The notes under the pieces were generated by a model. That model was not told where the DNA came from. It searched no databases and worked only from the letters and a program-made list of their open reading frames with translations. DNA of 17,915 bases from an uncultured Candidatus Saccharibacteria bacterium (GTDB taxonomy: Bacteria > Patescibacteriota > CALEFQ01). The translations under genes and the position numbers were made by a program. The DNA lies in contig CAZLGC010000013.1 of the NCBI GenBank assembly GCA_964559275.1, positions 4,208-22,122 on the forward strand, in the 5' to 3' direction. Shown here piece by piece: positions 7 to 3,445 of this stretch (positions are counted from its first letter, which is position 1; every line of letters starts with the position of its first letter).

Positions 7-1329
7 ATGTCAGAATTTCTTACATCACTACAGTCAGGTTTGGTCGAGGCTTTTACTACCGGTCCCTTTGTATATGTTTGGTTTTTGCTTGGAAAAACAT
101 GGTGGCTTTTTGTGCCACTGTTTTTGTTAATGGCGTCCTGGTGGTATTGGGTTGATTATATTCAGACCCAGTTCGTAAAGGGGCTTGATTTTCGCCTGCT
201 GACTGTGACCGTTCCCAAGGATGCCGAGCGGACACCCAAATCAATGGAGCAGATCTTTGCGGCTGCCTTTGGGATGGCGCACGGTATTAATATGTTTGAG
301 AAATACTGGAAGGGCGGTGTGCAAGAATTCTTCAGTGCTGAACTGATTGGAATTGCCGGACATATCCGCTATATTTTCCGAATGCCGTTTGCTTTCCGTG
401 ATCTTTTTGAGGCCAACATATATGCGCAGTACCCGGAAGCAGAAATCACCGAAGTTGAAGATTATACGCAGCTGATCCCGGATGATTTTCTGGAAAGGGG
501 TTATAAGGCCTGGGGAGCAGAGATTTTGCTTCTTAAGGAGGATGCATACCCGATCCGCACCTACCCCGATTTTGAAGAACGTATTACCCAAGAAGTCATT
601 GATCCTATGTCGTCTATCACGGAATTAATGAGCCTAATGGGAGAGGGGGAGCAGCTATGGGTGCAATGGGTTTGCCGACCAGTCATGTCCAAAGACCACA
701 ATTGGGTTAAAGAGGGCGAAGCACTGCGAGATAAGCTTCTGGGAAAACTACCACCGGCGCAGGCAAACGCGGTTATGTCAGCGCTGTCTACTCCCTTGAA
801 TGCGGCCGGAAATGTTATCGACCAGGCGTTAGGATACGAGGCTATTACTGCGGAAACTCCGGAACAAAAGATGCCTCTAATGTCCCCCGATTTATATAAC
901 GCTTTGTTGGCGCTAGATAGAAATATGGCGAAGCTAGGATTTGAGGTCCACGGGCGGGTATTTTATGTGGCGAAAAAAGACACTTATCTTATCCAGCGCG
1001 GTGTTACTGGTTTCTTCGGTTATCTGCAACATTTCAATACTCAGAACCTAAACGGTTTCAAGCCGGACAACAAAATGAAGACAAAGGTTGACTATTTCAT
1101 GCGTGATTACCGGGAATACTGGCGCAAACGGCGGATGTTAGAAGTCTGTCAGACGCGGAGTATGTGGGTCGGCAACAAACCTTTCATTTTAACTACCGAA
1201 GAGCTGGCCACGGTCTTTCACTTCCCAATGCCGACGGTCAAAGCCAAGACTATAGAGCGGGTTGAGGCCAGAAAGGGCGCTGCTCCGCGAGATTTGCCGA
1301 TTGCCGGTAGCCCGATTAAGACTAAATAG
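7..1329 (+). CDS. Hypothetical membrane protein with two N-terminal TM helices and a ~370-aa soluble domain, co-operonic with the downstream ATPase. The reading frame is open back to base 1, so the true start may lie upstream of the window.
   Basis: 440-aa ORF. Hydrophobic segments FVYVWFLLG and WWLFVPLFLLMASWWYWV lie within the first 50 aa. TAG stop at 1327-1329 is followed 2 nt later by the ATG of the next gene, in a different frame. No diagnostic catalytic motif recognised. Confidence 0.5.
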   Translation: MSEFLTSLQSGLVEAFTTGPFVYVWFLLGKTWWLFVPLFLLMASWWYWVDYIQTQFVKGLDFRLLTVTVPKDAERTPKSMEQIFAAAFGMAHGINMFEKYWKGGVQEFFSAELIGIAGHIRYIFRMPFAFRDLFEANIYAQYPEAEITEVEDYTQLIPDDFLERGYKAWGAEILLLKEDAYPIRTYPDFEERITQEVIDPMSSITELMSLMGEGEQLWVQWVCRPVMSKDHNWVKEGEALRDKLLGKLPPAQANAVMSALSTPLNAAGNVIDQALGYEAITAETPEQKMPLMSPDLYNALLALDRNMAKLGFEVHGRVFYVAKKDTYLIQRGVTGFFGYLQHFNTQNLNGFKPDNKMKTKVDYFMRDYREYWRKRRMLEVCQTRSMWVGNKPFILTTEELATVFHFPMPTVKAKTIERVEARKGAAPRDLPIAGSPIKTK

Positions 1330-1331
1330 CT

Positions 1332-3098
1332 ATGCCAGAAGAGAGTATAAATGTTTTCGGTGAAACCAATTTCCGCAACCAGCGGACCCAGTTTGGTATA
1401 AAAACAGACGATCGTCGCCGGCATATGTATGTTATCGGGAAGACCGGTATGGGTAAATCTCACTTGCTACGGAACCTGGCTTACAACGATGTCCATGCCA
1501 ACCGTGGACTGGCTTTCATTGACCCGCACGGGGATTCGGCGGACTGGCTCTTGGAACATATTCCCAAGGAACGTATCAACGACGTTGTCTATATCAATCC
1601 GACTGACATTGACTATCCGGTGGCTTTCAATGTTTTGGAAAAGACTGATCGTCGTTTCCACAACCTGGTGGCTGACGGGCTGGTGGGTATTTTCAAAAAA
1701 ATCTGGGCTGATTCCTGGGGGCCGCGCCTGGAGTACTTGCTGCGCAACGCTCTTTTGGCTCTGCTGGATTACCAGGACAGCACGTTGCTGGGTGTGACTC
1801 GTATGCTAGTTGATAAGTCTTACCGTAAAAAAGTTATTAAGCAGATCCAGGATCCGGTGGTGAAAGCTTTCTGGGTTGATGAATTTTCCCGTTATAATGA
1901 CAGGTTTTTAGTCGAGGCGATTGCTCCTATTCAGAATAAGGTCGGGCAGTTTCTGGCTAATGCTGTTATCCGTAATATTGTCGGTCAGACTAAAAGTACG
2001 ATTGACATGCGTGAGCTTATGGATAACGGCAAAATTCTTATTCTGAATCTCTCCAAAGGAAAGATTGGTGAAGAGAGTAGTGCTCTCTTGGGAGCGATGA
2101 TTGTAACCAAACTCAGCTTGGCCGCCATGAGCCGGGCCGATATTCCGGAGGAAGAGCGGCGCGATTTCTTCTTGTATGTAGATGAGTTTCAGACTTTCGC
2201 CACCGAGAGTTTCGCTGACGTTTTATCAGAAGCTCGAAAGTATCGTCTTAGTCTAACCATGGCTCATCAGTATATTGAACAAATGCCAGAAGCGGTGGCG
2301 AATGCAGTATTTGGTAATGTCGGAACAATAGTTTCATTTCGGGTGGGGGCAATGGATGCTGAGGTACTGGAAAAGGAATTTGAACCGGTTTTTATGCAAC
2401 AGGATCTGGTTAATCTGCCTAAGTATCACTACTATATAAAACTGATGATTGACGGCGTGGCCGGAGAAGGATTTAGTGCCAATACCATTAATATGCAGTT
2501 CGAGCCGACGGGGAATATGCAGAAGGTCGTCCGGGTTTCTCGGGAGCGATACGCCAACCCGCGGAAAGAAGTCGAAGACAAAATTGCTCGTTGGAGCGGA
2601 GTGTTCGACGCCAAGGATATTCCAGACGAAGAAAAGCCTAAGCCGAAATTTCAATACACACCAAAGTACAAACCGAAAGGCGGGGGAGATCGTAAACCGC
2701 GGCGAGGTGGAAGGGATAGAGGTGGTGATCAGCGACGACCCCAGCGTCCCCAGCAAAGCAAGCGGCCGCAAGAGAGTGCTCCACCCAAAGGTGGTGGTAA
2801 GCAGAGAGACAAAGACCACGCCTGGATACCAACACCGGAAGCAATAGAGCAGGTCAAAACCGATCAGAAAAGTCAGCCAGCGGCGTCACCAAAGAAATCT
2901 GAAAGCGAAAAATCCGGTCGTCCCAAGGGTTGGCAACCGCCCAAACCGCCAGCTGTCCCAGCCGGACAGCGCCAGAAAAAGAATCCAGAGATTTCACTAG
3001 ATGAAGCCGTCAAGCAAAAACCGCAATCAATGCATCAGCCTAAAAAGAATAGTGCGGGGAAGAACGATGTGCAGCCCGGTCAGAAAGTGAAAATGTAG
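1332..3098 (+). CDS. P-loop NTPase of the FtsK-HerA / type IV secretion ATPase superfamily (VirD4/TraG/TraD coupling-protein-like or VirB4-like) with a ~150-aa basic, low-complexity C-terminal tail
   Basis: Walker A VIGKTGMGKSHLL followed by IDPHGD. Walker B-like FFLYVDEFQTF. RKYRLSLTMAHQYIEQ matches the R-K/G-Y-G/R-hydrophobic...Q pattern of T4SS and HerA ATPases. The C-terminal ~150 aa are rich in K/P/G/R/Q (PKPKFQYTPKYKPKGGGDRKPRRGGRDRGG...). Assignment to a specific subfamily cannot be made by eye. Confidence 0.6.
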   Translation: MPEESINVFGETNFRNQRTQFGIKTDDRRRHMYVIGKTGMGKSHLLRNLAYNDVHANRGLAFIDPHGDSADWLLEHIPKERINDVVYINPTDIDYPVAFNVLEKTDRRFHNLVADGLVGIFKKIWADSWGPRLEYLLRNALLALLDYQDSTLLGVTRMLVDKSYRKKVIKQIQDPVVKAFWVDEFSRYNDRFLVEAIAPIQNKVGQFLANAVIRNIVGQTKSTIDMRELMDNGKILILNLSKGKIGEESSALLGAMIVTKLSLAAMSRADIPEEERRDFFLYVDEFQTFATESFADVLSEARKYRLSLTMAHQYIEQMPEAVANAVFGNVGTIVSFRVGAMDAEVLEKEFEPVFMQQDLVNLPKYHYYIKLMIDGVAGEGFSANTINMQFEPTGNMQKVVRVSRERYANPRKEVEDKIARWSGVFDAKDIPDEEKPKPKFQYTPKYKPKGGGDRKPRRGGRDRGGDQRRPQRPQQSKRPQESAPPKGGGKQRDKDHAWIPTPEAIEQVKTDQKSQPAASPKKSESEKSGRPKGWQPPKPPAVPAGQRQKKNPEISLDEAVKQKPQSMHQPKKNSAGKNDVQPGQKVKM

Positions 3099-3100
3099 GT

Positions 3101-3445
3101 ATGGACAAAATCACAATAACCCAAATCATTGTTTGGTCACTGGCATTTACATTTGTTCTATCACCCTTGCTTATCGTGCGGGCGACAGATTCTGTTATTA
3201 TTGAAACTGATAGCATCGATGAAAATCGGTTACAACCGCGGATTGGGGAAGGGGCAGCTGTGGGTCCCATCACCGAACCAGAGCCAACGGCAGCGGATCT
3301 AGAGGCTGCTGCTCCGGAGCAGGTCCCGGAAAATATATCTGTATATTTATTGAAACAATGGTGGTTCTGGTTAATGATAGTGGTAGCGACAAGTGTGACT
3401 GGTTTTGTCTCATATGAAAGGCTACATCTCGTAAATAATAAGTGA
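3101..3445 (+). CDS. Small secreted or membrane protein (N-terminal signal/TM plus C-terminal TM anchor)
   Basis: 114 aa. ATG lies 2 nt after the stop of the upstream gene. N-terminal hydrophobic stretch IIVWSLAFTFVLSPLLIV. C-terminal hydrophobic stretch WWFWLMIVVATSVTGFV followed by a charged tail. Pro/Glu/Ala-rich linker between them. Confidence 0.45.
   Translation: MDKITITQIIVWSLAFTFVLSPLLIVRATDSVIIETDSIDENRLQPRIGEGAAVGPITEPEPTAADLEAAAPEQVPENISVYLLKQWWFWLMIVVATSVTGFVSYERLHLVNNK

Follow-up and report, generated by a model that had tools for sequence, protein, structure and literature searches.

The window analysed here is a stretch of 17,915 nucleotides from an uncultured Candidatus Saccharibacteria bacterium (GCA_964559275.1, contig CAZLGC010000013.1, positions 4,208 to 22,122), and its first two open reading frames, ORF1 and ORF2, are a tightly packed two-gene pair (positions 7–3098) of the core genome of Patescibacteria (Candidate Phyla Radiation, CPR). 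ORF2 is a motor ATPase of the type IV coupling protein (T4CP)-like kind, a VirD4/TrwB-like member of the FtsK/HerA superfamily, and ORF1 is a membrane protein of the family DUF8128. The pair is followed by a small membrane protein gene, ORF3, and by a gene for an MVP-like protein, and an initial annotation of this DNA had considered that the ATPase might load or export cargo for a vault-like particle. We are fairly confident of the identity of the pair as given, of the pairing of ORF1 with ORF2, and of the absence of a vault link.

The ATPase and its membrane partner

The three ORFs are real, as had been annotated, lie on the same strand, and are spaced by 2 nt at both the ORF1/ORF2 and the ORF2/ORF3 junctions (Table 1). 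The motifs named earlier for the ATPase, GKTGMGKS, IDPHGD (aa 63–68), YVDEFQ, and RKYRLSLTMAHQ, were all found in ORF2, and the Walker A, Walker B, and RKY/Q motifs are invariant among 44 homologues. Three Pfam families matched ORF2, each just above its cut-off: TrwB_AAD_bind (30.3 bits against 20.5, covering aa 25–338), DUF87 (26.9 against 23.2), and TraG-D_C (22.9 against 22). When a profile of the ATPase family was compared with the PDB sequences, TrwB was the top match (E 7e-9) and DotL was also matched (E 4e-6). The AlphaFold2 (AF2) model of ORF2 has a core with a confidence score (pLDDT) of ~90 and an all-alpha insertion, and Foldseek returned TrwB as the best match to this model (E 7e-13, TM-score 0.60–0.65 over ~415 columns); HerA, Cag-beta, and DotL ranked lower. 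Because the Pfam, PDB-profile, and Foldseek results agree on TrwB, ORF2 is a T4CP-like motor, and the VirD4-like class proposed at first is correct.

ORF2 gave no match to CagE_TrbE_VirB or TIGR00929, and hhalign of the ATPase profile with the pGO1 proteins TrsE (VirB4-like) and TrsK (VirD4-like) was weak for both (E 3e-5 and 5e-4) and did not separate them. No segment of transmembrane (TM) length was detected in ORF2 by a 19-residue hydropathy scan; a 15-residue scan flagged only aa 251–266, which lie within the folded core.

The long basic low-complexity tail of the ATPase was also borne out: K, P, Q, G, and R are abundant in the last 158 residues, which the AF2 model shows as disordered. 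Most homologues carry a treble-clef zinc finger (CxxC-x17-CxxC, PF23477) in this tail, and ORF2 does not; in the clade of the window the finger has been lost, and basic low-complexity sequence is kept together with a short ISLxEA helix. A basic tail of this kind could bind nucleic acid, as the initial annotation suggested.

ORF1 was assigned to DUF8128 (PF26449) from a database protein identical to it (P0121, 100%) and from the homologues listed, 118 of 120 of which were already annotated as PF26449. Its orthologues in four close relatives (L001 and L003–L005) and in an identical assembly (L086) are likewise annotated. A profile search with DUF8128 returned 3,793 cluster representatives at 50% identity; among the homologues listed, the family consists throughout of "hypothetical proteins" of Patescibacteria, and our literature search found no paper mentioning it. 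ORF1 had been described as a protein with two TM spans. The membrane anchor is supported and the number of spans is uncertain, since hydropathy gives one clear segment (aa 24–42) whereas the AF2 model has two helices (aa 20–30 and 32–59). At the other end of the protein, the conserved C-terminal linker is disordered in the model (pLDDT <50 at aa 412–436). The modelled cytoplasmic domain resembles VirB4 (TrwK of R388) in fold, a similarity that is structural only, and we infer that the DUF8128 domain is the counterpart of the non-ATPase N-terminal region of VirB4. Similarity to EccE of type VII secretion is much weaker than that to VirB4.

Homologues of the pair were surveyed at 84 ATPase-encoding loci, 4 from close relatives and 80 from species-level genomes, against which a DUF8128 hidden Markov model built in this analysis was run. 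DUF8128 is encoded immediately upstream of the ATPase, on the same strand, at 73 of the 77 loci whose upstream sequence is long enough. Two loci also have a paralogous second copy in which both parts are fused into one ORF, DUF8128::ATPase (L082:102–2699, 866 aa; L043:11191–13692, 834 aa), which lies 7–9 kb from the split pair of the same genome and in which the C-terminal linker of DUF8128 is continuous with the N-terminus of the ATPase. The fused paralogue scores 26.8 bits for the VirB4-type model (CagE_TrbE_VirB or TIGR00929) against a cut-off of 643. The near-constant adjacency and the fusion in paralogues are strong evidence that DUF8128 and the ATPase work as one unit. The "module" proposed earlier holds for ORF1 and ORF2 and not for ORF3, which belongs to a variable slot.

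The pair lies in a conserved chromosomal context. An assembly that is 100% identical to the window and reaches further upstream (L086) shows the order SecD, SecF, a 365-aa protein, DUF8128, and ATPase. The 365-aa protein (L086:3501–4598), encoded just upstream of the window, combines an N-terminal sigma-70 region 4 with a HARE-HTH domain resembling that of the RNA polymerase (RNAP) delta subunit (TIGR04567, 46.1 bits versus 42). Such a sigma-r4/HARE-HTH protein of ~365 aa occupies position −2 at 54–56 loci, SecD/SecF occupy positions −3 and −4 at ~35 loci, and the five-gene order is conserved across Patescibacteria classes. The remaining flanks in distant relatives are housekeeping genes (pseudouridine synthase, a TsaD-family protein, a penicillin-binding protein (PBP) transpeptidase, and mnmA). 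The homologues of the ATPase in the databases number over 8000 and share 65–70% identity across CPR classes; over its 425-aa core it is 59–70% identical to those of Falkow-, Moran-, Kerfeld-, Uhr-, Buchanan-, Doudna-, and Nealsonbacteria. Few CPR proteins of unknown role are as strongly conserved.

In their passages on this gene class, Quinonero-Coronel et al. (2025, PMC12102498) report 5,713 VirD4-like homologues, spread over 2,918 of the 3,035 Patescibacteria genomes surveyed (~96%), only 148 of these homologues near virB4, and suggest that those far from virB4 were possibly exapted for another function. ORF2 belongs with these previously reported "T4CP homologues far from virB4": it is from the same gene population, VirD4-like, near-universal in Patescibacteria, and not beside virB4. 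The pair is an instance of a catalogued, uncharacterised, phylum-wide gene pair whose VirD4-like homologues are known from that source, and what is new here is modest, namely the predicted VirB4-like fold of the DUF8128 partner and the fused forms. The same passages mention neither DUF8128 as a partner nor its VirB4-like fold, and are likewise silent on fusions, on synteny with SecDF and the sigma-like gene, and on how the tail is built. To the known homologues we add an architecture of a membrane anchor with a predicted VirB4-like fold, a TrwB-like motor, and a basic or zinc-finger tail, with DUF8128 as the nearly constant partner.

A probable Saccharibacteria counterpart of the pair is SEML1_0293, with orthology drawn from domain layout and synteny only. 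In the transposon-sequencing (Tn-seq) tables of Wang et al. (PMC10633639 supplements), this gene is non-essential and directly follows an essential sigma-like gene, SEML1_0294, probably the Southlakia epibionticum counterpart of the ~365-aa sigma-r4/HARE-HTH protein. The TrwB-like domain of SEML1_0293 begins near residue 400 in these tables, which is consistent with a fused form having a large N-terminal extension. In S. epibionticum, the genes of the T4SS (type IV secretion system) are essential; the same tables list SEML1_0142, a further T4CP-like paralogue, as essential too. The architecture described above offers a testable handle on the pair in genetically tractable Saccharibacteria.

Table 1. 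Coordinates of the features of the pair, ORF3, and the MVP segment in the window
Feature	Position	Strand	Remarks
ORF1, DUF8128 (PF26449), 440 aa, N-terminal membrane anchor and cytoplasmic domain	7–1329	+	
ORF1 membrane-anchor helices, ~aa 20–59, one or two TM spans	64–183	+	Hydropathy, AF2
ORF1 conserved C-terminal linker, HFPxP...ARKGxPPxxLP	1195–1329	+	Invariant H405, P407, P427, P431
ORF2, soluble TrwB/VirD4-type (T4CP-like) P-loop ATPase, 588 aa	1332–3098	+	Pfam, PDB profile, Foldseek
Walker A GKTGMGKS, aa 36–43	1437–1460	+	G36, K37, T38, G39, G41, K42 invariant
All-alpha domain inside the nucleotide-binding domain, ~aa 107–231	1650–2024	+	AF2 helices
Walker B region YVDEFQ, aa 282–287	2175–2192	+	D284, E285, F286, Q287 invariant
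RKYRLSLTMAHQ motif, aa 302–313	2235–2270	+	Aligns with the matching TrwB motif (TrwB residues 262–323)
Predicted disordered polycationic tail, aa 431–588, net charge +21	2622–3098	+	Composition, AF2
ISLDEA short conserved helix motif in the ORF2 tail, aa 554–559	2991–3008	+	
ORF3, 114 aa: signal-peptide-like N-terminus, acidic linker, C-terminal TM anchor "WWFWL"	3101–3445	+	
Strain-specific inserted segment: promoter-like site, Shine-Dalgarno, MVP-like gene, terminator hairpin	3446–6573	+	Absent from L001, L003, L004, L005
Promoter-like TTGACA-17-TATTGT with upstream TG	3500–3528	+	Scan
MVP-like gene	3615–6470	+	MVP_shoulder E 1.4e-18, Vault_3 E 4.5e-8

Relation to known translocases and possible function

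ORF2 shares with the T4CPs (TrwB of R388, VirD4, TraD, DotL, and Cag-beta) the P-loop nucleotide-binding domain interrupted by an all-alpha domain, the Walker A/B and RKY...Q motifs, and a long C-terminal tail, a possible docking region. It differs from them in having no TM domain in its own polypeptide, the anchor being supplied by the separate ORF1 or, in paralogues, by fusion. The pair also differs in that no relaxase (Dtr) or mating-pair/T4SS (Mpf) genes are linked to it in the window and the conserved flanks, and in that ORF2 is a chromosomal core gene conserved phylum-wide. The tail of F-plasmid TraD is acidic and binds TraM, whereas that of ORF2 is basic and its relatives have a zinc finger.

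With VirB4 (TrwK) the pair may share a layout in which the predicted VirB4-like fold of DUF8128 is followed by a RecA-like motor, in a single chain in the fused paralogues. The split into two adjacent genes, as in ORF1–ORF2, is also seen in trsD–trsE of pGO1. However, the ORF2 motor is closer to TrwB than to VirB4, and DUF8128 has no detectable sequence similarity to TrsD. DUF8128 also has its own TM anchor, whereas VirB4 relies on VirB3 for membrane anchoring, as stated in PMC12102498.

The N-terminal helices of DUF8128 would tether the ATPase at the cytoplasmic membrane, so that ORF1 and ORF2 together may rebuild the layout of a membrane anchor, a VirB4-like N-domain, and a RecA-like motor. 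By analogy with TrwB and VirB4, the ATPase probably assembles as a hexameric ring, and ATP hydrolysis would drive a polymer through or to the membrane. The polymer would most likely be nucleic acid, caught by the polycationic tail, or by the zinc-finger tail in most relatives; nucleic acid is the substrate we favour from family precedent and tail chemistry. The pair may work for the Patescibacteria T4SS, whose genes lie far away, or may have been exapted as a device independent of the T4SS. We tentatively read the pair as a nucleic-acid translocase, with confidence a little short of even; hexamer formation, what is transported and in which direction, and a connection with a T4SS are proposals. 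A conditionally useful role, such as the transfer or uptake of DNA or RNA, is favoured because the probable counterpart SEML1_0293 is non-essential while the T4SS genes are essential.

A narrower version, which we consider rather doubtful, is that the pair is an autonomous, T4SS-independent two-component translocase, fixed in the core genome of Patescibacteria, that joins a VirB4-like N-domain to a VirD4-like motor and would carry nucleic acid to the membrane or across it. If so, it could, for example, import or export DNA or RNA at the host interface, as a conditionally dispensable way to scavenge nucleotides or exchange genes, apart from the ComEC and T4SS pathways.

Several points weigh against a DUF8128–ATPase unit that moves nucleic acid and is built on a VirB4-like domain. 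At four loci (L046, L048, L056, and L066), a different small gene replaces DUF8128 upstream of the ATPase. The TrwK residues aligned to DUF8128 are absent from the output of both tools used, so that the "N-terminal domain" part of the comparison is inferred. A link of DUF8128 to VirB4 or TrsD at the sequence level was not found: the DUF8128 profile found no relevant match among the PDB sequences, only a chance match to a carboxypeptidase, and hhalign with pGO1 TrsD, which is related to the VirB4 N-terminus, gave E 0.25. Basic disordered tails bind RNA, membranes, and acidic proteins too. Finally, SEML1_0293 is non-essential, which argues against an indispensable role and against the pair being the sole T4SS coupling protein or a substitute for FtsK.

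The upstream genes of the loci lacking DUF8128 were also compared. At three of the four, a 136–139-aa ORF precedes the ATPase, with a ~700-aa protein further upstream in two of these three; other short ORFs are found otherwise. In S. epibionticum, the essential T4CP-like gene SEML1_0142 is preceded by SEML1_0141, a 139-aa hypothetical gene with a growth-defect/essential phenotype in the tables of PMC10633639. The 136–139-aa protein may be a second type of partner.

A serious rival to nucleic-acid transport, although we give it a low probability, is that a protein is moved or extracted, either as effectors to the Patescibacteria T4SS or as an aid to export beside SecDF. Many T4CPs couple proteins, including DotL and Cag-beta, both of which are among the structural matches of ORF2; SecD/SecF recur in synteny with the pair, and relaxases are largely lacking in Patescibacteria according to PMC12102498. 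However, the basic tail, the zinc finger, and the DNA-binding-type protein encoded upstream fit nucleic acid better. The pair is also encoded far from virB4 in the gene population described by that source, and the T4SS genes are essential in S. epibionticum whereas the probable counterpart SEML1_0293 is non-essential.

That ORF2 is a defence ATPase against phage, of the HerA or MADS mad8 type, is very unlikely. PADLOC matched mad8 to ORF2 over aa 20–370 (E 1.3e-17) and HerA weakly, Pfam matched DUF87 as given above, and the Foldseek matches also include SIR2-HerA and DndH; nevertheless, TrwB is the closer structural match than HerA, and no NurA or nuclease partner is encoded nearby. The eight-gene mad operon context was not seen around the mad8-like ORF2: ORF1, ORF3, and the MVP gene had no PADLOC match, and the other genes of the window, covered by the Pfam scan only, are housekeeping genes with no partner gene evident. 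A distribution close to universal, a constant gene order, and 65–70% identity between classes run opposite to the behaviour of defence islands, and the mad8 reading was rejected on distribution and context.

We regard an FtsK-like translocase for chromosome segregation or division as similarly improbable. ORF2 belongs to the same superfamily, would be membrane-tethered, and is a core gene, and a PBP/FtsI-like gene lies downstream in L082. However, ORF2 has no Pfam or NCBIfam match to the FtsK/FtsK_SpoIIIE motor domain at E ≤ 0.01 and no gamma (KOPS-binding) domain, and the probable Saccharibacteria counterpart is non-essential in the Tn-seq tables. From a text-search match, FtsK is apparently mentioned in a paper on the Saccharibacterium TM7x. 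The profile searches proposed by the initial annotation thus place ORF2 with TrwB/VirD4 and not with a housekeeping FtsK.

Membership of the pair in a mobile element, conjugative or integrative, or in another accessory island was also raised at first and can practically be dismissed. The ATPase family is typical of conjugative elements, and curated NCBIfam conjugation equivalogs (TraD, VirD4) gave weak matches; all the TraD, VirD4, and VirB4 cut-offs were missed widely (best SXT_TraD, 38.9 bits versus 366; conju_CD1115, 21.7 versus 250). Against this, the Pfam scan of the window found no integrase, transposase, relaxase, or further T4SS gene and the window has no tRNA; the conserved flanks have no relaxase, VirB4, VirB6, integrase, or transposase, and VirB3, VirB6, and VirB8 genes are absent nearby. 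The nucleotide composition of the pair is that of the genome, the flanks are housekeeping, and the synteny with SecDF and the RNAP-associated factor holds across Patescibacteria classes. A mobile-element origin was rejected on the absence of tRNA, integrase, relaxase, and T4SS genes and of convincing repeats around the MVP insert.

The variable slot and the MVP gene

ORF3 is a small signal-peptide/TM protein, as annotated earlier, with hydrophobic segments at aa 4–29 and 89–104, and it is confined to close relatives. Its aa 5–76 match aa 15–88 (E 1.4e-5), and its aa 39–99 match aa 1310–1370 (E 5e-8), of a 1386-aa Big_13 protein in L004; it also matches the C-terminus of a 1480-aa protein in L001 and a 106-aa protein in L003, with which it has a PRIGEG motif in common. 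Because it matches the leader and the "WWFWL" anchor of the large proteins, ORF3 is, judged by sequence, a short form of a variable-length surface protein and stands outside the conserved ATPase pair.

The ATPases of the four closest relatives (L001, L003, L004, and L005) are 96%, 85%, 85%, and 82% identical to ORF2. In three of the four, the DUF8128–ATPase pair is followed, after the slot, by a sortase gene on the minus strand and then mnmA; the contig of the fourth stops before the sortase. The slot between ATPase and sortase holds a 918–1480-aa Big_13 protein (together with a GATase-domain gene in L001) or the 106-aa protein alone. Nucleotide similarity to these relatives ends in the ATPase tail (~2686) and restarts in the sortase gene (~6592).

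In the window, the slot holds in addition a gene whose product is a true MVP homologue, as initially annotated. It starts 169 nt after ORF3 on the same strand, and the arrangement beside the pair is real, since three independent assemblies are identical. Separate transcription of this gene is supported by a promoter-like site and by a strong Shine-Dalgarno sequence, AAGGAGGG. The terminator that was said to separate it from ORF3 is poorly supported: the only hairpin after ORF3 that is followed by a T-run (3453–3480) is AT-rich, its stability (dG −9.4 kcal/mol) is not significant against shuffled sequence (z = −0.71), and it was not picked up by the consensus terminator scan. At 6519–6550, where the MVP and sortase genes converge, lies a GC-rich hairpin, a perfect palindrome of 12 bp with T-runs on both strands, which is likely a bidirectional terminator.

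The GC content of the MVP gene is 0.578 and its third-position GC content (GC3) is 0.681, compared with 0.43–0.50 and 0.40–0.54 in 11 neighbouring genes. The nearest homologues are only 43–45% identical and come from Eremiobacterota, Myxococcota, Planctomycetota, and one Magasanikbacteria. None of the four closest relatives has an MVP gene in this region. The gene is a compositionally foreign, strain-specific single-gene acquisition in a variable slot with no conserved link to the pair, and provides a clean example of a bacterial MVP gene gained by single-gene insertion in a CPR genome. The flanks of the segment have no convincing repeats and no further insertion signature; a 22-nt imperfect direct repeat (73%) at its edges (3441–3462 and 6581–6602) is probably due to chance. 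Within the MVP gene, a perfect 18-nt tandem duplication (4431–4466) encodes PEQSEQ.

One functional cassette, in which the translocase would load, export, or otherwise serve a neighbouring vault-like particle, is hardly credible, and the proximity of the two genes in three assemblies is what speaks for it. Against it, no MVP homologue was found within 10 kb of the ATPase at any of the 84 loci, and the pair was absent from both of the MVP loci compared (L090 and L091, one of them from a CPR genome); in the four closest relatives the same slot is empty or taken by a Big_13 surface protein, and the MVP gene has a foreign composition and its own promoter. The pair is also older in this lineage than the MVP gene by the depth of the whole phylum. 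Co-occurrence was therefore tested from the ATPase loci and from the MVP loci alike, and vault linkage was rejected as a general rule. Without it, the original reason for flagging the locus falls away.

Other genes of the window

An Rfam scan of the window returned no RNA family. Between the sortase gene and mnmA, an alpha/beta-hydrolase gene and a CYTH gene (7269–8590) overlap by 22 nt in the window. The close relatives differ at this site: L001 and L003 have the hydrolase only, and L004 has the CYTH gene only. The products of four consecutive genes at 9862–12431 (+), of 110, 310, 238, and 191 aa, are charged coiled-coil proteins that match no family solidly, and L003 and L004 have genes of comparable length at these positions. 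The alanyl-tRNA synthetase gene at 12437–14764 (+) encodes a complete histidine-phosphatase domain (His_Phos_1, E 1.5e-42, aa 223–403), which splits the class II catalytic domain of the synthetase into two halves, an unusual arrangement for an essential enzyme.

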